Source of the DNA: Solirubrobacterales bacterium
GTDB taxonomy: Bacteria > Actinomycetota > Thermoleophilia > Solirubrobacterales > 70-9
Direction of reading: 5' to 3'
Assembly: GCA_035502495.1 (NCBI GenBank)
Contig: DATJUK010000141.1
Coordinates: 22,545 to 86,544, forward strand
Length of the DNA stretch: 64,000 bases
In this document: positions 3,177 through 45,440 of the stretch, in pieces
Layout of the letters: each line of letters starts with the position of its first letter
Position numbering within the stretch: position 1 is the first letter of the stretch
The notes under the pieces: generated by a model
Databases searched by the model: none
What the model saw: only the letters and a program-made list of their open reading frames with translations
What the model was told of the DNA's origin: nothing
Position numbers and translations under genes: made by a program

Positions 3177-4019
3177 ATGCGGATCGCCTACCTGGGACCG
3201 GCCGGGACCTTCACCGAAGACGCGCTCACCGAAGCGCTCGGCGGCAACGACTTCGAGCCGCTGCGCACCGACACCGTCTTCGACGCGATCAGCGCCGTGA
3301 TCCAGGGCAGCGCCGACCGGGCGCTGGCCCCCTACGAGAACTCGATCGAGGGCTCGGTGCGGGGGACGCTCGACATCCTCGCCTTCGAAGCGCCGGACGT
3401 CGCGATCGTCGGCGAGCACGACTACCCGGTGCGCCAGCACCTGATCGTCAAGGAGGGCGTCGAGCTCGGCCAGGTCGAGGCCGTCCTCTCCCACCAGCAG
3501 GGCCTGGCCCAGACCGCCCGGTTCCTGCGCGAGAACCTGCCCGGGGTCGAACTGCGGAGCGTCAGCTCGACCGCGGCGGCGGTGCGGATGGTCTCCGAGT
3601 CCCCGCGGCCGTGGGCGGCGATCGGCTCGCGCGCGGCGGCGCGGCTCTACGGCTGCGAGATCCTGCGCGAGGGGATCCAGGACGAGGCGAACAACGTCAC
3701 CCGCTTCGTCTGGGTGGCCCCGGAGGGCGCCGAGCCGGAGCCCGCGGCGGCCGACGCGCAGTGGAAGACCTCGCTGATCTTCTCCGAGCTCGGCGAGGAT
3801 CATCCCGGCGCCCTGGTCGCGGCGCTGAGCGAGTTCTCCTCGCGGGGGCTCAACCTCTCGCGGATCGAGTCGCGCCCCCTGCGCTCCGAACTCGGCCGCT
3901 ACTTCTTCTTCGTCGACGTCGACGGAAAGCTCGACCTCGAGCCCGTGGCCGAGGCGATCGAGGCGCTGCGCGGCAAGGCCGAATCGGTCCGCATCCTCGG
4001 CTCCTACCCGATCATCTGA
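3177..4019 (+). CDS. pheA: Prephenate dehydratase (PDT plus ACT domains)
   Basis: MRIAYLGPAGTFTE.., NVTRFVWV and ESRP..GRYFFFVDVDG motifs typical of PheA. Confidence 0.9.
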   Translation: MRIAYLGPAGTFTEDALTEALGGNDFEPLRTDTVFDAISAVIQGSADRALAPYENSIEGSVRGTLDILAFEAPDVAIVGEHDYPVRQHLIVKEGVELGQVEAVLSHQQGLAQTARFLRENLPGVELRSVSSTAAAVRMVSESPRPWAAIGSRAAARLYGCEILREGIQDEANNVTRFVWVAPEGAEPEPAAADAQWKTSLIFSELGEDHPGALVAALSEFSSRGLNLSRIESRPLRSELGRYFFFVDVDGKLDLEPVAEAIEALRGKAESVRILGSYPII

Positions 4020-4055
4020 GTCGCCGCTTCCGTCCCCGCTTACAATTCCCGCACC

Positions 4056-4565
4056 ATGGCCAGGGTGCTGGTGCTCAATGCGACGTATGAGCCGATCAAC
4101 GTCTGCACTTTGCGACGCGCCGCCGTGCTGCTCCTGAAGGAAAAGGCCGAGCTCCTCGAGCAGCGTGACGGCGGCGCCCTCCACTCCGAGCACATGACGA
4201 TGGAGCGCCCCGACGTGATCCGCCTGGTCAACTACGTCCGCATCCCCCGCGAGGCCCACCGCCGCAAGATCACCCGCCGCGCCGTCCTCGCCCGTGACTC
4301 CTGGACCTGCCAGTACTGCGGCTCGACCAAGTCCGGCCTCACCGTCGACCACGTCATCCCCCGCTCCCGCGGCGGCGAATCGGTCTGGGAGAACATCGTC
4401 GCCGCCTGCGCCACCTGCAACCGCAAGAAGGGCAATCGGCTGCCGCGGGAGATCCACATGCATCCGAAGAACTCCCCCAAGGCTCCTGCCCCGACGGTGT
4501 TCATCCAGGTCGCCAGCCCGAAGATCCCGGCGACCTGGCAGCAGTACTTGCCGCAGGCTGCTTAG
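4056..4565 (+). CDS. HNH endonuclease family protein
   Basis: CQYCG..LTVDHVIPRSRGG..WENIVAACATCNRKKGNR is a Cys4 plus HNH motif. Confidence 0.85.
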   Translation: MARVLVLNATYEPINVCTLRRAAVLLLKEKAELLEQRDGGALHSEHMTMERPDVIRLVNYVRIPREAHRRKITRRAVLARDSWTCQYCGSTKSGLTVDHVIPRSRGGESVWENIVAACATCNRKKGNRLPREIHMHPKNSPKAPAPTVFIQVASPKIPATWQQYLPQAA

Positions 4566-4582
4566 TTCGGAGGGTTTGCGAG

Positions 4583-4696
4583 GGAGGGAGGCCTGACCCT
4601 CACCTCACTCAGACTCGCGCTGGATCGCCGGTGGCCCGTCCGAGATCGCCACCGGGCGCTCGTTCACGTCGTTCGGAGAGGGTCAGGCCTCCCTCC
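4583..4696 (+). repeat. Hairpin repeat element, type 1 (CTGACCCTC-type arms), copy A
   Basis: The 19-bp arm GGAGGGAGGCCTGACCCTC (4583-4601) is the exact reverse complement of 4678-4696. Core CTCACTCAGACTCGCGCTGG..GGGCGCTCGTTCACGTCGTTCGGAG is shared with copies at 15900, 16246 and (degraded) 4789. Inner 6-bp hairpin GGTGGC/GCCACC. Confidence 0.85.
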
Positions 4697-4788
4697 ACCG
4701 GCCAGCGCCCAGGGTTCGCAACCAGCTCTCGACCAGGTGCGGACGGGACGAGCCTCGGTGGGGCTTCGGCCGACTCCCGCGTCCGTTA

Positions 4789-4898
4789 GAGGGGGCTGGG
4801 GCACCCTCCGAACGGCGTGAACGAGGGGCCGCAAACATCCTCGGACGGGAGCCGGCAACCATCCCCGAGTCTAGTGAGGAGGGTGCCCCAGCCCCCTC
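4789..4898 (-). repeat. Hairpin repeat element, type 2 (GGGGCACCCTCC-type arms), copy B, inverted relative to copy A
   Basis: Perfect 21-bp arms GAGGGGGCTGGGGCACCCTCC / GGAGGGTGCCCCAGCCCCCTC. The core is the reverse complement of the family core, but more diverged, and the inner hairpin is lost. Confidence 0.8.
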
Positions 4899-4916: not shown

Positions 4917-7475
<2,559 letters not shown>

Positions 7476-7577
7476 CAGCTGACCCTCCTGCAATTCGGGG
7501 CATCTCGGCGTCCTCGGTCGACTCGCTCCCCGCGTCCACCGACCTGCTTGATTTTCGGAGGCTCAGAAGCCAGGTGG

Positions 7578-10445
<2,868 letters not shown>

Positions 10446-10449
<4 letters not shown>

Positions 10450-11570
10450 GCGGCCTCCGCGCCGGGCTCGGCGCTCTCGTCCGCGCTGCCGTCGTCGACC
10501 GCTCCCGGGCTCGGCATCCGCACCGTCGACTCGCGCGCCCGCGCGGGCAGCGACTCTTCGTCGGCCGCCGTGATCAGCGTCTGCCCCCCGGCCGCGAGGC
10601 GGGCGACGAGCAGCTCGCGTCGGCCCGGGTCGAGCTCGCTCATCACGTCGTCGAGCAGCAGCAGCGGGGTGACCCGCCGGGCGTGGAGGAGCGCCTCGCG
10701 CTCGGCGAAGAGCAGGGCCAGGAGGGCGGCGCGCTGCTGGCCCTGCGAGCCGTACTTGCGCAGCGCCCGGCCGCCGGCGTTCAGCTTCACCTCGTCGAGG
10801 TGGGGGCCCCAGGAGCCGCGCCCCAGTTTGAGGTCGGCGTCGCGGCGCTCGCGCAGGCCTTCGCGGATCGCCGCAGCGTCGCCCTCCGCCCGCGGCGCGT
10901 AGACCAGCTCGCCATCGGCGAGCCCGAGCTCCTCCAGCGCCGCGGCGAAGGCGGGCGCCAGCTCCTCGACCGCCTCGGCCCGCGCCGCCACCAACGGCGC
11001 GGCGGCCTCGGCGAGGCCGGCGTCCCAGACGTCGAGCGCCTCGGTTGACCCGTATCCGGCGGCGACGCGGGAGACCATCGCGTTGCGCTGGGCGAGCGCC
11101 TGGCCGAAGCGCTTGCGCAGCTCGCCGCGGGCGGGCCAACGGGCGGCGAGAAAGCCGTCGAGATGGGCGCGGCGCTGCGCCGGCGGGCCCTTGACCAGGT
11201 TCAGGCGGTCGGGCGCGAAGACCGCCACCGGCGGCCGCGAGCGGGCGATCGTCGCCGGGTCGGCGGCCTGGCCGTCGAGCAGGTGGCGGCGGCCCTCGGT
11301 GCGGCTCACCGAGGCGAGCAGGCGCCGCTCGATCCCGTCCTCGTCGCGCACCGTCGCCTCGGCCCGCGCCAGGCCGGCGCCGAACGGGATCAGGTCGCGC
11401 CGGTCCGAGGTCCGGAACGAGCGGCCGGTGAGGGCGAAGTAGAGCGCCTCGGCCAGGTTGGTCTTGCCGACGCCGTTGGGCCCGACGACGCTGGTGATCC
11501 CCGGCCCCAGCGGCACGCGGACGCGCTCGAGGCTGCGGAGCGGGCGGGCCTCGATCGCGGTGACCAGCAC
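10446..11570 (-). CDS. recF: DNA replication and repair protein RecF
   Basis: Walker A GPNGVGKTNLAEALY, signature ..GSQGQQRAALLAL.., Walker B LLLLDDV. Confidence 0.95.
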
Positions 11571-11585
11571 CGGACCTCGCCCGCC

Positions 11586-12692
11586 CTAGACGTTCAGGCG
11601 GATCGGCATCACGAGGTAGCGGAAGTCCTCGTTGTCGACCGGCTGCATCAGGCCCGGTCGCAGCGGCGAGATCAGCCGCAGCAGCACCTCGTCCCCGGCG
11701 ACGCTTTCGATCCCCTCGCGCAGGTAGTCGGGGTTGAAGCCGATCTCCATCGGCTCGCCCTCGAAGGCCGCGGGCATCGTCTCGCGCGCGTCGCCGACGT
11801 CCGGCGTCTCCGCCGACACGGTCAGCTCGCCCGGCTCGAAGGAGAACCGCAGCGGCGCGTTGCGCTGGGCCAGCTGGCTGATCCGGCGGGCCACGTCGAG
11901 GAATTCGCCGCGCGGCAGGCGCACGTCGTGCTCGTAGGACTCGGGGAGCAGCTGGCGGAAGTTCGGGAACTGGCCCTCGATCAGCCGCGTGGTCAGGGTG
12001 ATCGACCCGGCCTCGAAGATCGCCTGGTTGGTCTGCAGGGTTATCGCCGCCGCGTCGACGCCCTCGCCGGCCAGGATCCGGGCCAGCTCGCGCAGCGCCC
12101 GGGCCGGGATGTTGGCCTCGATCTCGCCGGTCAGCGGCGTCTCCAGCTCGGTCCGCTTCACCGCGAGGCGGTAGGAGTCGGTGGCGACCATGGTCATCTC
12201 GTTCCCGGCGGCGGTGACGAAGACCCCGGTCAGCACCGGGCGCATGTCGTCGCGCGAGGCGGCGCGGGCGACGAGGTCGATGCTCTCGGCCAGGGCCGGC
12301 GCCGGGATCCGGATCGGCTCGCCGTCGGTGCTCGGCAGCGTCGGGAAGTCCTCGGCCGGCAGCACCCGCAGGTGGAAGCTGGAGCCGCCGCTGCGGATCT
12401 CGACGTCGCGCTCGGCCTCGCGCGTCTCGATCTCCACCGTGTCGTCGGCGAGCGAGCGAGCGACTTCGGCCAACAGTTTGCCGGGGAGGAGGACCGAGCC
12501 GTCGGTCTCCACGGTGGCCTCGACCGCGGTGCGCAGGCCGAGGTCGAGGTCGGTGGCGGACAGGGTCACCGAGCCCTCGCCCGCCTCGAGCAGGACGCCG
12601 GAGAGGGCCTGGGTCGCGGCGCGGGTCGAGACCGCACGCGAGACGGTGGAGAGCTTGGCGACGAGTTCTTCGCGTTTGGTCGTGAGCTTCAA
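11586..12692 (-). CDS. dnaN: DNA polymerase III beta sliding clamp
   Basis: Full-length DnaN-like three-domain protein ending ..YLVMPIRLNV. Canonical position between dnaA and recF. Confidence 0.95.
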   Translation of the reverse strand: MKLTTKREELVAKLSTVSRAVSTRAATQALSGVLLEAGEGSVTLSATDLDLGLRTAVEATVETDGSVLLPGKLLAEVARSLADDTVEIETREAERDVEIRSGGSSFHLRVLPAEDFPTLPSTDGEPIRIPAPALAESIDLVARAASRDDMRPVLTGVFVTAAGNEMTMVATDSYRLAVKRTELETPLTGEIEANIPARALRELARILAGEGVDAAAITLQTNQAIFEAGSITLTTRLIEGQFPNFRQLLPESYEHDVRLPRGEFLDVARRISQLAQRNAPLRFSFEPGELTVSAETPDVGDARETMPAAFEGEPMEIGFNPDYLREGIESVAGDEVLLRLISPLRPGLMQPVDNEDFRYLVMPIRLNV

Positions 12693-12880
12693 AAGATCGA
12701 GATTGCCTTGTGGAGTTGGTTTAGGTCCTGTGGAAAGAAGACGGGATGAAGACTATTCCGCGACGCAAGGCCGAATGCGGCCTGTGGATGCGGCTGTGGG
12801 CGGGCGTGGATTCTGACAGTGGCGGCGGCGGGCCGGGCTCAGGCCTGTGGGCGGCCCGCGGTGGGGCTGTGGATGGCTGT
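12693..12880. promoter_or_regulatory. Candidate oriC: cluster of same-orientation DnaA-box-like TGTGGA motifs in the dnaA-dnaN spacer
   Basis: TGTGGAGTT 12709, TGTGGAAAG 12729, TGTGGATGC 12783, CGTGGATTC 12805 and TGTGGATGG 12868, plus weaker TGTGGGCGG at 12795 and 12846 (reverse complement of TTATCCACA-type boxes). The locally AT-richer stretch aaaagatcgagatt lies at about 12690. Confidence 0.6.
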
Positions 12881-14167
12881 GCGTAACTCGGCGACCTTCT
12901 GGCTGAGCGCCTGGTCCTCGCCGAGGCTCGCTTCGACCCGGCGCAGGCTGTTCAGCACCGTCGTGTGATCGCGGCCGCCGTAGAGCCGGCCGATCTGCGG
13001 GAGCGAGAGCTCGGTCAGCTCGCGGGTCAGGTAGATCGCCACCTGACGAGCCCGCAGCGGCGTGGCGGCACGGCTCGAACCGACCAGCTCGGCGCGGGAG
13101 ATGCCGAAGCGTTCGGCGACCTGCTGCTGGATCTCCTCCACGGACGTGGCCTGGGCGCTCCTGCTGCCGCGCGGGATCACCTCGGCGATCAGCTCGGAGC
13201 TGAGCGGCTTGGCGAGCAGGGAGGCGTGGGCGATCACCCGGGTCAGGGCACCGTGCAGTTGGCGGACGTTGGCATCGATCCGCTGGGCGAGCTCGCCTAG
13301 CGCTTCGGAGTCGGCGATCTCGATCCCGGCCTCCTCGACCAGGTGGCGGAGGACGGTGAGCCGGGTAGCCAGGTTCGGCGGCTCGACCGGGATCGTCAGG
13401 CCCCACTCGAAGCGATCGCGGAGGCGTGAGGCGAGGGTCGAGAGCTCGCTCGGGATGCGGTCGGCGCTGAGCACGAGCTGGCTGCCGGACTCGTACAGGG
13501 CGTTGAAGGTGTGGAAGAACTCCTCTTCGGTGGCGGGCTTGCCCTCGAGGAACTGGACGTCGTCGATGAGCAGCACGTCGATGTCCCGGTAGCGCGCCTT
13601 GAAGGCATCGGCGCCTGTCGATTTGAGCGCCCCGACGAACTCGTTGGTGAACGACTCGGCGGTGGTGTAGCGGACGCTGAGGCCCGGAGCGTTGTCGTTC
13701 AGGTAGTTGGCGATCGCCGCCAGCAGGTGGGTCTTGCCGAGCCCCGGCGGGCCGTGCAGGAAGAGCGGGTTGTAGGCCTCCGAGGGAGCCTCGGCGACGG
13801 CGAGCGCGGCACCGTGGGCGAGGCGGTTGCCGGGACCGATGACGAAGCGGTCGAAGGTGTAGCTGGGGTTCAGCTCGGGGCCGGGGGAGATCGCCTCGGC
13901 CAGCTCGCGCGGCATCGTGAAGCTCACCTGGCTCAGCCCGCTGCCGCCCGCGCCGAGGGCCTGGGAGATCAGTCCCGAGTAGCGTCGTTCGGCCCAGGCC
14001 CGGATCCCCTCCGGAGCTTCCAGGTAGAGCGTGTCGGCGTCGGACCCGACCGCTTTCAGCGGCTCCAGCCAGAGGCGGTAGGTCGACTCCGGGACCGATC
14101 CTTCTAGGCGTTCCTGGGCGGTTCGCCAGAGGGCGTCGAGGTCTGTTGGGGAGGAGTCGTCAGGCAC
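12839..14167 (-). CDS. dnaA: Chromosomal replication initiator protein DnaA
   Basis: AAA+ Walker [12 protein letters not shown], box VII, and C-terminal DNA-binding ..[15 protein letters not shown]. Start set at GTG 14167. The track ORF start at 14278 would overlap rpmH. Confidence 0.96.
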
Positions 14168-14251
14168 CGGGGGCGGCGACGATAGCGCCGTGATTTGCTG
14201 GGGGATCCGGGCCAACCGCAAATGCCGGGGAAAAGATTTCTCGCGGGTCCC

Positions 14252-14257
14252 TATACT
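14252..14257 (+). promoter_or_regulatory. Possible -10 element (TATACT) for rpmH, implying a very short or absent leader
   Basis: TATACT fits the TANNNT form and lies 11 nt upstream of the rpmH ATG. No convincing -35 was seen. Confidence 0.25.
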
Positions 14258-14267
14258 CCCGCCGGCA

Positions 14268-14402
14268 ATGAAGCGCACTTACCAGCCAAAGAAGCGGAAG
14301 CGGGCGAAGACCCACGGTTTCCGCGCCCGCATGAGCACCCGCGGTGGCCGCGCCGTCCTGCAGCGTCGCCGGCGCAAAGGTCGGAAGCGCCTCACCCCCT
14401 GA
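14268..14402 (+). CDS. rpmH: 50S ribosomal protein L34
   Basis: [44 protein letters not shown]. Confidence 0.96.
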
Positions 14403-14407
14403 GCCCG

Positions 14408-14776
14408 ATGCCGCCGAAGCGCCGTCGGCTCTCGCGCAGCGGCGAGTTCGACCGCGTCTATCGCGACGGCTCATCGCATGCGACCCGCTATCTCGTCCTC
14501 TACTCGTTTCCTCGTCGCGACGAGGAGCGCGAAGACGTGAGGCTCGGCGTGTCGGTATCGCGCAAGGTGGGCGGATCCGTGGACCGCAACAAGGTCAAGC
14601 GGACCCTGCGTGAAGCCTTCTGGTCGCTCTCCGAGCGCCTGCCGGACAAACATGACTTCGTAATCGTCGCCCGGGCCGACATCGGCGGGTTGATCGAGAA
14701 GGAAGGAACCGCCGGGGTGACCAAATCGCTCGAAGAGGCGATGGACGCCAGCTTCGGCGGGGGCCGTTCCACGTGA
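14408..14776 (+). CDS. rnpA: Ribonuclease P protein component
   Basis: Basic ~120-aa protein (..RLSRSGEFDRVYRDG.., ..VSRKVGGSVDRNKVKRTLREAF..) directly after rpmH. Confidence 0.9.
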   Translation: MPPKRRRLSRSGEFDRVYRDGSSHATRYLVLYSFPRRDEEREDVRLGVSVSRKVGGSVDRNKVKRTLREAFWSLSERLPDKHDFVIVARADIGGLIEKEGTAGVTKSLEEAMDASFGGGRST

Positions 14777-14780
14777 AACG
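14765..14780. promoter_or_regulatory. parS-like site 1 (CGTTCCACGTGAAACG)
   Basis: The central 14 nt GTTCCACGTGAAAC fit the parS consensus tGTTNCACGTGAAACa. It contains the rnpA stop (TGA 14774-76) and the first yidD start candidate (GTG 14773). Confidence 0.75.
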
Positions 14781-15087
14781 GCCGGCCGAGTCCACCGAGG
14801 ATGCGTTCCACGTGAAACGCGTGGCCCTGGCTCCCATCCGCGCCTATCAGCGCTGGATCTCGCCTTCGCGCCCCCGTCGCTGCAAGTACGAGCCGACCTG
14901 CTCTTCCTACACCGTCGAGGCGGTCGAGCGCTTCGGCGTGCTCCGGGGCCTCCTCCTCGGCTCCTGGCGCCTCCTGCGCTGCAACCCGTTCTCCCACGGG
15001 GGCTTCGACCCGGTCCCGGACCGCTTCACCCTCCGCGGCCTCGGTCACGTCCACCCGGCCGACTACCACGGTGAGGCGCGCTCCTGA
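14773..15087 (+). CDS. yidD: Membrane protein insertion efficiency factor YidD
   Basis: ..IRAYQRWISPSRPRRCKYEPTCSSYTVEAVERFGVLRGLLLGSWRLLRCNPFSHGGFDPVP. The start is either GTG 14773 or GTG 14812. Confidence 0.9.
   Translation: MKRPAESTEDAFHVKRVALAPIRAYQRWISPSRPRRCKYEPTCSSYTVEAVERFGVLRGLLLGSWRLLRCNPFSHGGFDPVPDRFTLRGLGHVHPADYHGEARS
14804..14819. promoter_or_regulatory. parS-like site 2 (CGTTCCACGTGAAACG)
   Basis: Identical 16-mer 39 bp downstream of site 1. It contains the second in-frame GTG start candidate of yidD (14812). Confidence 0.75.
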
Positions 15088-15857
15088 TGTTCATCCCCGA
15101 CGCGAACATCCTGCAGCCGCTGATCGACGTCGCCAACGCGGTCCTCAAGTTCTTCCACGACAACGTCGGCCTCTCCTGGGGCATGTCGATCATCGCGATC
15201 ACCGTCTGCACCCGGGCGCTTCTGATCCCGCTGACCTACAAACAGCTCAAAGGCATGCGGGCGATGCAGGCGCTCCAGCCGCAGATCAAAGAGATCCAGG
15301 AGAAATACAAAAACGACAAACAGCGCATGCAGCAGGAAATGATGCGCTTCTACAAAGAGAACAAAGTCAACCCGTTCGCTTCCTGCATCCCGCTGCTGGC
15401 TCAGCTCCCGGTCTTCATCACCCTCTTCTACACGCTCCGCCACGAGCTCCCGAAAGACATCTGCTCGAACCTCGGGCTCGCGGAAGGCTGCGAAACCGCC
15501 GGCCACGCGTCCTTCCTCTTCATCAACGACCTGACCGCGAAGGCGCACGGCGCCGAACTGATCGCGCTCCTGGTCCTCTACGTCGGCACCCAGCTGATCT
15601 CCGGCTTCTTCATGTCGGTGACGGCCGACAAATCGCAGCGGACGATGATGTTCGTCCTACCGCTGATCTTCGTGCCCTTCGTGATCAGCTTCCCGGCGGG
15701 CCTGATCCTCTACTGGATCACGACCAATATCTGGACGATCGGCCAGGGCCTCGTGATCAAACGGATCATCCCGGCGCCGCACGTGCCTACGGTGGAGGAG
15801 AAACGGGCGGCCAAACCGCCGCCTAAACCGCCCAAAAAAAAGAAGAGGCGGCGCTGA
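15087..15857 (+). CDS. yidC: YidC/Oxa1-family membrane protein insertase (short form)
   Basis: ..IIAITVCTRALLIPLTYKQLKGMRAMQALQPQIKEIQEKYKNDKQRMQQEMMRFYKENKVNPFASCIPLLAQLPVF.. with a basic C-tail. Its ATG overlaps the yidD stop (TGATG). Confidence 0.93.
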   Translation: MFIPDANILQPLIDVANAVLKFFHDNVGLSWGMSIIAITVCTRALLIPLTYKQLKGMRAMQALQPQIKEIQEKYKNDKQRMQQEMMRFYKENKVNPFASCIPLLAQLPVFITLFYTLRHELPKDICSNLGLAEGCETAGHASFLFINDLTAKAHGAELIALLVLYVGTQLISGFFMSVTADKSQRTMMFVLPLIFVPFVISFPAGLILYWITTNIWTIGQGLVIKRIIPAPHVPTVEEKRAAKPPPKPPKKKKRRR

Positions 15858-15899
15858 AAGGGGGCTCCTGATCGAGGGGCCCTTTTTTGGGTTTGCGGG

Positions 15900-16012
15900 G
15901 AGAGCGTTCTGACCCTCTCCTCACTCAAACTCGCGCTGGTATCGGTGCGGCCTGGCCGAGGTCGCCGCAGGGCGCTCGTTACAAGCCGTTCGGAGAGGGT
16001 CAGAACGCTCTC
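15900..16012 (+). repeat. Hairpin repeat element, type 1, copy C
   Basis: Perfect 21-bp arms GAGAGCGTTCTGACCCTCTCC / GGAGAGGGTCAGAACGCTCTC. Inner hairpin TGCGGC-CTGGCCGAGGTC-GCCGCA. The core is homologous to copy A. Confidence 0.88.
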
Positions 16013-16085
16013 TGCGGGCCATGGAGGGGGGCCCCTTGGCGCCCCGCGCTTGCTGGCTGTCTGCGGCCTCGCCTCGGGTCGCGGT

Positions 16086-16152
16086 CAGCACCAGTCGGCC
16101 GATCAGCATCGGACAGCCGACCAGCACAAGTCGCCGATCAGCACCACGAAGC
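16086..16152. repeat. Degenerate ~18-bp tandem repeat (about 3.5 units) in the spacer between copies C and D
   Basis: CAGCACCAGTCGGCCGAT / CAGCATCGGACAGCCGAC / CAGCACAAGTCGCCGAT / CAGCACCACGAAGC.. Confidence 0.45.
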
Positions 16153-16245
16153 TGTGGTCTATTCCGGCGCTTCGAGGTGTCTCAACCGGCGCCTCGGGTG
16201 ACTCACGTCGACCACACCGGCACTGGAGGATTCCCGGGCTTGTGA

Positions 16246-16358
16246 GAGGGGGTCGGGGCACCCTCCGAACGGCTTGTAACGAGCGCCCTGCGGCGACCTC
16301 GGCCAGGCCGCAACCGATCCAGCGCGAGTTTGAGAGAGGAGGGTGCCCCGACCCCCTC
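16246..16358 (-). repeat. Hairpin repeat element, type 2, copy D, inverted relative to copy C
   Basis: Perfect 21-bp arms GAGGGGGTCGGGGCACCCTCC / GGAGGGTGCCCCGACCCCCTC. The 71-nt core is the near-exact reverse complement of the copy C core (one substitution and one 1-nt shift by eye). Confidence 0.88.
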
Positions 16359-16377
16359 CCTCAGGGCCTCACCCCAA

Positions 16378-17067
16378 CTACCCGCGCGGCCGCTTCTTCG
16401 CCATCCCAGACTTGCGAGGGAGGTCCGCCGGCGTCGGACCCGACTTGCGGAGGACGTGGAGGTGGCGATGCTCTGACCCCGCCCGCCCGCCGACGTCGAG
16501 GATCGACTCGGGGGTCATCGCCAGGGACGCCCCGGCGCGGGCCATCTGGGCCTCTTCCCCTTCGTCGCGCCTGCCCTTCCAGGCGACCAGGACGCCGCCT
16601 TCGCGCAGGAGCGGCGAGGCGAGCTCGGCGAGGGTCGAGAGGCGGCCGACGGCGCGGGCGGTGACCACGTCGTAGGACTCGCGGCCGCCGGCCGGAGGCT
16701 CGACCCGGGCGACGTCCTCGGCCCGGGCGGTGATCGCGACGGCGTCGGCGATGCCCGCCGCGGCCGCCGCGCGCTCGATGAAGGCGGTCTTACGGCCCAC
16801 CGACTCGATCATGTCGACCCGCGCCAGGGGCAGGGAGGTCGCCAGGACGAGGCCCGGAAAGCCGGCTCCAGAGCCGATATCCGCGATTCGGGAGGCCTCG
16901 CGGAGCTCCGGCACCTCGAGCCCGGTGAGGCTGTCCTCGACATGGACCTTCCAGGCGCGCTCGTCCACCACGCTGCTGACCGAGGCGCGCTCGGCGGCGA
17001 GGAGCTCGAGGACGGTTTCCAGGGAGCGGCGCCCGGCGTCGGTGAGCGACGCGGCCGGATCGCTCAC
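16378..17067 (-). CDS. rsmG: 16S rRNA (guanine527-N7)-methyltransferase RsmG (GidB)
   Basis: ..IADIGSGAGFPGLVLA.. SAM motif, ..YDVVTARAVGRLSTLAELASPLLREGGVLVAWKG... The GTG start overlaps the jag stop (GTGA). Confidence 0.93.
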   Translation of the reverse strand: MSDPAASLTDAGRRSLETVLELLAAERASVSSVVDERAWKVHVEDSLTGLEVPELREASRIADIGSGAGFPGLVLATSLPLARVDMIESVGRKTAFIERAAAAAGIADAVAITARAEDVARVEPPAGGRESYDVVTARAVGRLSTLAELASPLLREGGVLVAWKGRRDEGEEAQMARAGASLAMTPESILDVGGRAGSEHRHLHVLRKSGPTPADLPRKSGMAKKRPRG

Positions 17068-17546: not shown

Positions 17547-17654
17547 GCGCCCAGGCTATCCGACCGCCGCCCACCGCGGGGCACGAATCGGCCCGCCGCG
17601 CCAGATTCCGCGCTTGCCCACTCCAGACAGGACACTCATCTAGTCTGGGCGCCG

Positions 17655-18413
17655 ATGGGCACCGTCTACGCGATCGCGAACCAGAAGGGTGGCGTCGGCA
17701 AGACGACGAGCGCCGTCAACCTCGCCTCCTGCACCGCCTCCGAAGGCGAGCAGACGCTGCTGGTCGACCTCGATCCCCAGTGCAACGCGACCGTCGCGCT
17801 GGGCGGCGATCGGGACCTGCACCCCTCCTCCTACGACTGCCTCACCGGCGACACCGAGGTCGCCGCCGCCGCGCGCCCGGCCGGGCCCGACAACCTCTGG
17901 CTGGTCCCCGCCAACGTCGACCTGGCCGGGGCCGCGATCGAGCTCCCCCGGATCGAGAACTCCGAGACCCGTCTGCGCGACCGCCTCGGCCCGGTGCGGG
18001 AGCGCTTCGCCCGCACCTTCCTCGACTGCCCGCCCTCGCTCGGCCCGGTCTCGGTCAACGCCCTGGTCGCCGCCGACCGCGTCATCGTCCCGGTGCAGGC
18101 CGAGTACCTGGCGCTCGAGGGGCTGGTCCAGTTCCTGGAGACGCTGGGCCTGATCCGCCGCCGGCTGAACCCGCGCCTGGAGGTGTCGGGATTGCTCATA
18201 ACCATGCATGACGAGCGCACGCGGCTGGCCCAGGATGTCGAGGCCGAGCTGCGCGACCAGTTCCCCGGGATGGTCTTCGAGACGGTGATCCCGCGCAGCG
18301 TCAGGGTCGCCGAGTCGCCTAGCTATGGTCTCCCCGTGACCGAGCACGCCCCCACCTCGCGCGGTGCCCTCGCCTACAAGGCGCTGGCCAGGGAGCTCGT
18401 CACCCGTGGCTAG
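17655..18413 (+). CDS. parA: Chromosome partitioning ATPase ParA (Soj)
   Basis: Deviant Walker A: IANQKGGVGKTTSAVNLA. ..LLVDLDPQCNAT... Confidence 0.95.
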   Translation: MGTVYAIANQKGGVGKTTSAVNLASCTASEGEQTLLVDLDPQCNATVALGGDRDLHPSSYDCLTGDTEVAAAARPAGPDNLWLVPANVDLAGAAIELPRIENSETRLRDRLGPVRERFARTFLDCPPSLGPVSVNALVAADRVIVPVQAEYLALEGLVQFLETLGLIRRRLNPRLEVSGLLITMHDERTRLAQDVEAELRDQFPGMVFETVIPRSVRVAESPSYGLPVTEHAPTSRGALAYKALARELVTRG

Positions 18414-19320: not shown

Positions 19321-19394
<74 letters not shown>

Positions 19395-45367: not shown

Positions 45368-45440
45368 TGGGCCGTGTAGGGCTCGAACCTACGACCTTGA
45401 GATTAAGAGTCTCCTGCTCTACCAACTGAGCTAACGGCCC
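45368..45440 (-). tRNA. tRNA-Lys (anticodon CTT)
   Basis: Minus strand GGGCCGTTAGCTCAGTTGGTAGAGCAGGAGACTCTTAATCTCAAGGTCGTAGGTTCGAGCCCTACACGGCCCA. Acceptor GGGCCGT/ACGGCCC, anticodon loop CTCTTAA. Confidence 0.93.

Follow-up and report, generated by a model that had tools for sequence, protein, structure and literature searches.

A clade-specific family of intergenic palindromes with long covarying stems in uncultured Solirubrobacterales

Palindromic units at two gene junctions

The window analysed here, i.e., the whole 64-kb stretch of DNA with a G+C content of about 70%, originates from an assembly of a wetland metagenome and carries a composite palindromic element, in which two complementary arms enclose an asymmetric core. 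A profile search found only four copies of this element in the window, designated A, B, C, and D. Copies C and D lie between the convergent genes yidC and rsmG (locus 2), while A and B are placed between an HNH endonuclease gene and gyrA (locus 1). Positions and sequences of the copies were as given in an initial annotation of this DNA. The parts of the four copies are the following (window positions):

15900-15920, plus strand: 5′ arm of copy C (GAGAGCGTTCTGACCCTCTCC), a perfect 21-nt inverted repeat with 15992-16012, 100% complementary, with 71 nt between the arms
15921-15991, plus strand: core of copy C, 71 nt (from alignments A2 and A3 and the comparison with the copy D core)
15992-16012, plus strand: 3′ arm of copy C, the inverted-repeat partner of 15900-15920
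16013-16245, unstranded: spacer of the C/D doublet, 233 nt (from reading of the sequence and a repeat scan)
16246-16266, minus strand: spacer-side arm of copy D (plus-strand reading GAGGGGGTCGGGGCACCCTCC), a perfect 21-nt inverted repeat with 16338-16358
16267-16337, minus strand: core of copy D, 71 nt, inverted relative to copy C
16338-16358, minus strand: rsmG-side arm of copy D, 19 nt from the rsmG stop codon (16378-16380)
4583-4696, plus strand: copy A, with 22-nt arms at 4583-4604 and 4675-4696 and one mismatch
4789-4898, minus strand: copy B, with perfect 21-bp arms at 4789-4809 and 4878-4898 and a 68-nt core

The core of copy C is composed of a conserved 5′ block, TC(A/T)CTCAAACTCG.GC, and a conserved 3′ block, G.CCTCGTTACAAGCCGTTC, with a variable centre between them. 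As had been proposed, the cores of C and D are near-exact reverse complements (95.8% over 72 nt), and the two units can pair into a foldback of 116 nt, 81% complementary, across 231 nt. The arms of C and D were also described as unrelated apart from CCCTC; in fact they agree at 11 of 21 positions and represent two recurrent arm types. The perfect 21-bp arm pair of copy D sits within a 31-nt inverted repeat. The statement that the outer stems are perfect held for B, C, and D, each over 21 bp, but not for copy A, where a single A·A mismatch, at the third pair from the core, had gone unmentioned. Copy A starts 18 nt past the stop codon of the HNH gene, while copy B, the most diverged of the four, is found 19 nt past the gyrA stop codon. 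Folding of the units on either strand gave z values of -5 to -7.4, and none of 200 shuffled sequences folded as well.

An intergenic family with a covarying stem

An exact-pattern scan of one genome per species returned 116 stretches, and a scan of metagenomes 64 more. Profile searches yielded 175 full copies, including 149 unique ones, of which 135 were cleanly delimited. Nearly all true matches came from metagenome-assembled genomes (MAGs) labelled Solirubrobacterales, Actinomycetota or uncultured actinobacterium. The unit measures ~113 bp, with stems of 21-22 bp in most copies and cores mostly of 70-73 nt within an overall range of 68-74 nt, and all copies are intergenic. The same gene junctions are occupied in up to 27 genomes or contigs. 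The element follows yidC in at least 19 genomes and the HNH gene opposite gyrA in at least 14; other orthologous sites include secY/adk, smc/WS-DGAT, and tgt/Ser-Thr kinase. This synteny holds across species whose flanks are only 80-85% identical. The copies are therefore not recent self-templated duplicates lacking conservation, which the initial annotation had considered as a trivial origin of the palindromes.

Units occur singly or in doublets with spacers of 31-350 nt, and all 26 non-redundant adjacent pairs are ordered C-like then D-like. In most locus groups the C-like 5′ end lies 2-45 nt past a co-oriented stop codon. Orientation with respect to replication direction differs inconsistently between loci, and a partner copy may be gained or lost at the same locus between species. 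In the complete chromosome OZ241364.1 (3.8 Mb), the exact pattern revealed nine copies as a minimum, spread over seven loci at 0.46, 1.35, 1.36, 1.59, 2.56, 2.95, and 3.29 Mb. As these copies are dispersed around the chromosome, they are not origin-specific, and an origin-proximal parS-like function was rejected. A truncated copy, consisting of a 5′ arm and the first 18 nt of the core followed by a remnant of the 3′ arm, was observed at 4031-4083 of locus L026, immediately upstream of a full, like-oriented copy. It is the sole tandem case seen and provides evidence of decay and turnover. Several soil and wetland runs contain the conserved 31-mers of the family at high depth, and these repeated 31-mers break the source assembly where they occur.

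At the gathering score, Rfam 15 matched nothing in the window beyond two tRNA genes (19321-19394, plus strand; 45368-45440, minus strand), and nothing credible was obtained at E<=10 over 15700-16600. A literature search on motifs in this clade found no description of the family. We conclude that copies A to D are members of a previously undescribed, clade-specific intergenic palindromic family in uncultured Solirubrobacterales.

The anatomy of the unit was derived from alignments A2 and A3, read as copy D appears on the plus strand (D-like orientation). In this direction the unit is composed of the 5′ arm (consensus GAGGGGGTCCTGACCCCCTCC), GAACGGCTTGTAACGAGGGC, a variable centre of ~40 nt with the motifs CTCGG, CGG, and CGATCC, then GCCCGAGTTTGAGAGA and the 3′ arm. 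Each arm is itself a quasi-palindrome (GAGGGGGTC-CT-GACCCCCTC), and the two arms are therefore also near-direct repeats. The four core-proximal stem pairs are nearly invariant, while most pairs from the fifth outward are sequence-free, variability being greatest in the outermost 8-10 bp. Identical arm types, e.g., GAGGGAGTCGGGGCACCCTCC, can be found at non-orthologous loci. In the consensus fold the helix is prolonged imperfectly into the core by CUUG:UGAG, AAC:GUU, a 2x2 internal loop, and a covarying GGGC:GCCC helix; the loop reads GA/GA on the D-like strand and TC/TC on the opposite one. Covariation of an inner 6-bp hairpin, reported for the window copies, was confirmed for one core subfamily. 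It is not a feature of the family, in which the best helix flanking CTCGG was no longer than in shuffled controls (4.1 vs. 3.9 bp). Whole-element folding energy favoured the D-like strand in 56 copies vs. 30, whereas the apical domain folded better on the C-like strand in 95 copies vs. 36; these contradictory strand preferences probably reflect base composition.

Covariation was assessed on alignment A3, comprising 135 unique members and 4454 cells, against 500 shuffles. Results showed that 98.9% of the cells were paired (84.1 ± 0.3% in shuffles), that 565 cells carried double changes (121 ± 8 in shuffles), and that the covariation score reached 0.381, where shuffles gave 0.094 and slid partners 0.03-0.09; the observed values were attained by none of the 500 shuffles. 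Double changes were detected in 17 of the 21 pairs of helix 1 and in 3 of the 12 pairs of helix 2. The mirroring of arm changes, noted at first for the CT vs. TC difference between B and D and for four differences between A and C, all of them compensated on the partner arm, thus extends to the whole family. A family-wide alignment in which arm mismatches are frequent, named as a result that would speak against covariation, was not what we obtained: 121 of the 135 stems are perfect, and only 16 of 2430 cells in the 18 interior stem pairs are non-Watson-Crick. Of these 16, nine are of G·U type when read in the D-like orientation, two when read the opposite way, and the remaining five are mismatches of different kinds. 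Despite the variability of the stem, G·U pairs are almost absent. Such Watson-Crick rather than G·U-tolerant pairing suggests that the hairpin matters on both strands or that pairing is mainly a DNA-level product. The both-strand option could involve read-through transcripts from both convergent neighbours or a DNA hairpin, and the helix covariation is equally compatible with an RNA structure or a DNA hairpin.

The surroundings of locus 2 contain two further elements on the plus strand:

15860-15888, plus strand: terminator-like hairpin of yidC with a T6 run, placed after the yidC stop codon (15855-15857) and ahead of copy C (read from the sequence)
15888-15899, plus strand: G-rich motif (GGGTTTGCGGG; consensus in the family GGGCTTGCGGGG) abutting the 5′ arm of copy C on its outer side (from the flank composition of 135 copies and A3)

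The yidC hairpin was missed by a simple terminator scan because its stem is interrupted in the window. Together with its T-run it is conserved across the yidC orthologous loci, which indicates that the clade does use canonical terminators. The motif GGGCTTGCGGGG precedes many of the 135 copies. Its GGCTTG is complementary to CAAGCC of the core, and both partners are nearly invariant. A 6-nt direct repeat, TGCGGG (15894-15899 and 16013-16018), frames copy C like a target-site duplication. It is probably due to chance and to the conserved flank motif, as such repeats match the frequency in shuffled pairs (135 copies). In the C/D spacer (16083-16146), about four degenerate units of ~18 nt (GGTCAGCACCAGTCGGCC / GATCAGCATCGGACAGCC ...) were noticed; they were not seen in the spacers of other species.

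The window covers the chromosomal origin region, with dnaA-dnaN-recF-gyrB-gyrA on the minus strand (4917-14278), yidD-yidC on the plus strand (14656-15857), and parA on the plus strand (~17600-18413). The rsmG gene (~16378-17000, minus strand) is convergent with yidC, not co-directional, and there is no jag-like gene between them. The HNH endonuclease gene adjoining copy A occupies 4020-4565 and encodes 181 aa. Gene order and size alone were used for naming dnaA, dnaN, recF, and gyrB, while GyrA, YidD, YidC, GidB, and ParA-type domains were confirmed with Pfam.

Two other kinds of non-coding sequence were seen in the same intergenic regions of related genomes. One is a second, unrelated family of short repeats, occurring as inverted pairs GCGGTCGTCCTT...AAGGACGACCGC and as the motif (A)AGGGACG(A/G) in the spacers from the yidC-proximal copy to rsmG (L023 at ~3300-3670, L064 at ~7330-7430, and L073 at ~4560-4720); in the form AGCTGAAGGGACG it also follows many copies, and in the form TAGGGACGG it follows stop codons. 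It is not present in the window (0 matches, with 2 expected by chance). The other is a conserved non-coding block, CCTGAGGGTCCGAAAACCAAGCAGGTCGGGGGATGCAGGGAG, which in secY-adk spacers (L084 at ~4660-4740; also L042, L055, L051, and L001) lies between the secY stop codon and the element. This block reached 60-70x depth in one run of unrecorded type (X38) and may be another structured RNA.

Turnover of arms and cores and its interpretation

Comparisons of nearest relatives gave 5-13% divergence for the flanks and 16-23% for stem pairs 5-20, where pair numbers rise from the core outward. The variable centre came to ~40%, part of which is alignment noise, and the conserved flanks of the core to only 2.5-4.5%. 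Stem pairs turn over two to three times as fast as the flanking genes diverge, and despite this only 0.5-0.7% of the stem cells are mismatched. When a minimal step was defined as one or two pair differences between orthologous copies, we counted 52 minimal Watson-Crick replacements: 25 transition-type, 16 pair flips, and 11 other transversion-type changes, so that 27 of the 52 (52%) need transversions on both arms. The copies at L104 and L019 are the same over the aligned unit (118 nt of A2) save for one G:C to C:G flip, and their flanks are 96% identical. Orthologous copies of this kind, otherwise identical, indicate that paired changes arise in situ. The changed pairs were adjacent in five of 25 two-step cases, with about four expected; this hand count is uninformative as to clustering.

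The cores, in turn, evolve in concert. For 26 of 72 copies the variable centre is nearer to a same-genome paralogue than to any orthologue, and despite such paralogue-like cores the outer arms keep their locus-specific type, as in copy C of the window and in L101. This combination indicates that cores are exchanged by gene conversion while arms evolve in place; the 26 paralogue-like cores are evidence of exchange, though not of transposition. At some loci the whole arm type was replaced between close relatives. The yidC-proximal copy has the arm type ...CTGACCCTCTCC in the window and ...GGGGCACCCTCC in L005, L011, and L111, with homologous spacers on both sides.

A fast turnover with few mismatches and a transversion-rich spectrum is hard to obtain from two independent mutations filtered by selection, and is what the copying of one-arm mutations onto the partner arm should produce. 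Hairpin stems are known to be created and maintained by template switching during replication at quasipalindromes (PMC8794818). The initial annotation had offered selection on the hairpin and a mechanism regenerating palindromic ends as alternatives. Both find support here, and the data favour a mixture of the two without deciding between them. The reading that we rank first, ahead of a dedicated RNA gene, and which we consider about evenly balanced between right and wrong, is that of a new REPIN/ERIC-like hairpin family, with a hairpin present in transcripts, arms maintained by selection together with one-step templated correction, and cores by gene conversion. The unit would act as a long nucleic-acid hairpin, most probably in transcripts running in from the adjacent genes, where it might serve as a 3′-end barrier or a processing structure. 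The nearly invariant internal loops, homogenised within genomes, imply a common trans-acting partner, for which they would form a binding platform. The core-proximal stem pairs would be constrained in sequence, whereas the outer ones would need only to pair. A point mutation in one arm would be copied to the other in a single step, by intrastrand template switching or hairpin-directed correction during replication; with such one-step changes the arms could drift at about the neutral rate without accumulating mismatches. Purifying selection on pairing would then remove whatever escapes correction. Gene conversion would homogenise the cores among copies of the same genome and leave the outer arm locus-specific.

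Several observations weigh against this interpretation. Related copies were found in metatranscriptome contigs with a consensus-like copy as a query, yet such contigs carry no direction, may contain DNA, and give neither strand nor RNA ends; searches of RNA-seq and metatranscriptome data with the window itself showed coverage of the yidC coding sequence only. No U-tract follows the stem in either orientation, as judged from the flank composition of the 135 copies and from scans, and yidC has its own canonical terminator ahead of the element, which therefore is not simply a terminator. On both grounds (no T-run on either strand, and a separate hairpin with T6 at yidC) the identity of a canonical intrinsic terminator was rejected. 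In three locus groups the element faces a gene start instead of following a stop codon. Conservation is lowest in the outer half of the arm and highest in the core flanks, unlike in REPs. The apparent copy number is low, with nine copies at seven loci (exact pattern) in a chromosome of 3.8 Mb. No RAYT or other transposase was found beside the copies, among the 18 flanking proteins scanned. Finally, we infer template-switch correction from rates and spectra, and replacement of whole copies by paralogues could inflate the rate.

Among the other explanations, the one that survives best is a new small RNA or cis-regulatory RNA transcribed in the D-like orientation, in which the stem covariation would be the outcome of ordinary RNA-level selection. 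On this view each doublet would comprise two RNA genes diverging from a spacer that drives both, while singletons would reside in the 3′ or 5′ untranslated regions of co-directional genes. Strong stem covariation agrees with this proposal, and the synteny and near-invariant loop sequences suggest a conserved partner. Nine of the 11 transition-type interior mismatches are G·U in the D-like orientation and two in the opposite one; yet, this asymmetry is only suggestive (two-sided binomial p ~0.07), and strand-biased C-to-T mutation could yield it. On the D-like strand the 2x2 loop forms a tandem GA/GA and the CUUG:UGAG extension forms with G·U pairs. The preference of whole-element folding energy for this strand is countered by that of the apical domain for the opposite one. 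Where singletons lie between genes of one direction (secY-adk, SMC-WS/DGAT, and a third group), the D-like strand always agrees with that direction, whereas the regular spacing to stop codons holds for the C-like orientation. Scans detected no promoter-like sites in the spacers and no terminator tail, there is no matching Rfam family, and near-absent G·U pairs with many transversion swaps are atypical of stems that evolve via G·U intermediates. Taken together, we regard a dedicated structured RNA as possible, though rather doubtful.

Compensatory evolution alone would keep the stems through point mutations that arise separately in the two arms and each pass the filter of selection, templated correction playing no part. 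In its favour, intermediates do occur. They are rare (the 16 non-Watson-Crick cells), and both one-sided states of a single C:G flip at secY-adk were observed, C·C in L042 and G·G in L055. Large bacterial populations can also fix double mutants without fixing the intermediates. This explanation has difficulty, however, with a pair turnover two to three times the flanking-gene divergence at a mismatch occupancy of only ~0.6%, as well as with the 52% of minimal steps that need paired transversions, which should be several-fold rarer and have no G·U bridge. Part of the rate could be explained by whole-copy replacement. The compensatory-only explanation is thus weakened, and we consider it unlikely.

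We find it quite improbable that the element is a miniature inverted-repeat transposable element (MITE) derived from a DNA transposon, with two imperfect terminal inverted repeats of ~38-40 bp and a short filler, mobilised in trans, whose perfect arms would be a by-product of recent transposition. The anatomy is MITE-like, arm types are shared between non-orthologous loci, partner copies are gained or lost between species, and in L026 a truncated copy lies beside a full one. Transposon hallmarks are nevertheless absent. Target-site duplications are neither longer nor more frequent than by chance, adjacent direct repeats having the same lengths as in the shuffled control; the outermost 8-10 bp, which a transposase needs, are the most variable; neither solitary ends nor transposase genes were found in ~180 loci; synteny is retained across species with flanks of only 80-85% identity; and BLAST detected no similarity in 72,556 plasmids, where Tn3-family elements abound. 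Some resemblance of the ends to Tn3/Tn21 inverted repeats was considered and dropped in view of the lack of plasmid matches and the variable outer ends. Insertion into pre-existing palindromes was rejected as well, given the constant arm length, the shared arm consensus, and empty orthologous sites without a matching palindrome. HEARO, suggested by the HNH neighbour, gave no match; the HNH protein is short (181 aa), and an HNH gene is missing beside most copies.

The least tenable explanation is an inverton, in which recombination at the 21-bp inverted repeats would flip the 71-bp core; perfect inverted repeats around a short asymmetric segment and the presence of both core orientations within the window point that way, but the orientation of the core relative to flanking genes is fixed at every orthologous locus, 26 of 26 doublets share one arrangement, the source metagenome contigs contain no inversion joints, 71 bp is very short for synapsis, and the repeats vary between copies, unlike the sites of one recombinase, so that this reading is close to refuted.

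A more speculative idea, to which we assign little credence, is that the locus-specific perfect duplex of 21-22 bp is a payload on a conserved scaffold, either a precursor from which RNase III or a similar enzyme would release small duplex RNAs particular to each locus, or an addressable recognition module for a structure-specific nuclease or recombinase. Arms would then be driven to differ between copies, avoiding cross-pairing, and templated correction would keep each of them perfect. If true, the family would be the bacterial counterpart of guide-precursor hairpins and an instance of self-correcting palindromes in nature.

Significance and comparison with known systems

The main value of the family is as a system for studying the upkeep of perfect stems. 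It offers an unusually clean natural data set on long stems, with 135 independent copies, orthologous series across species, near-neutral turnover, ~0.6% mismatches, and a spectrum rich in transversions, and makes the question of selection vs. templated correction directly testable. The family is also an unannotated conserved feature at junctions of core genes (yidC/rsmG, gyrA, secY/adk, and smc) in an abundant uncultured soil order. It is worth modelling, e.g., as a covariance model, for the annotation of MAGs, the more so as the repeats break metagenome assemblies at these sites.

In our tests the unit did not show what defines a MITE, an inverton or a canonical terminator, and it matched no Rfam family. 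Several bacterial repeat families share individual traits with it. ERIC/IRU elements of enterobacteria are imperfect palindromes of ~120 bp, present in a few tens of copies per genome in transcribed intergenic regions and more conserved between species than expected; their function is debated (mRNA stability). They have one consensus over the whole length, whereas here the stem sequence is free and pairing alone is kept, and the host clade is another; the likeness is one of anatomy. BIMEs are clusters of REPs in alternating orientation, and TRIT is a mycobacterial motif between convergent genes. With these the family shares palindromic units between convergent genes, alternating pairs, and G+C-rich hairpins without a U-tract. 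Their units, however, are simple hairpins of 35-50 nt with conserved stems, in contrast to a stem of 21-22 bp with a conserved asymmetric insert of 70 nt. Correia/NEMIS elements of Neisseria measure 100-150 bp, and their terminal inverted repeats form long hairpins in mRNA that are substrates of RNase III. Their 26-bp terminal repeats are conserved and their target duplication is TA, two features that the present family lacks.

Template-switch maintenance (PMC8794818, PMC7202029), by which a mutation in one arm becomes a perfect paired change in a single event, fits the spectrum and rate found in this family. It is a mutational process and not a family of elements, and we infer its action here. 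As regards anatomy, REPINs are inverted doublets of REPs, mobilised by RAYT transposases, in which the spacing is 71 bp, compensatory changes are common, and a clover can form as an alternative to the hairpin (Bertels & Rainey 2011, PMC3116915). They number tens to hundreds per genome, and a cognate RAYT gene (Y1 transposase) typically lies between such repeats. The element described here likewise consists of two inverted short palindromic units in a hairpin of ~110 bp with ~71 bp between the ends, is extragenic, and forms higher-order clusters. Compensatory changes are common in it, too, and a clover fold is possible as each arm is palindromic. The differences are a low apparent copy number, synteny across species, no RAYT among the neighbouring proteins scanned, and no evidence of excision. 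In REPINs, moreover, the REP ends are invariant and the spacer is variable, while in the present family the outer half of the arm is variable and the core flanks are nearly invariant. REPINs are thus the closest known anatomy, with the pattern of conservation reversed.

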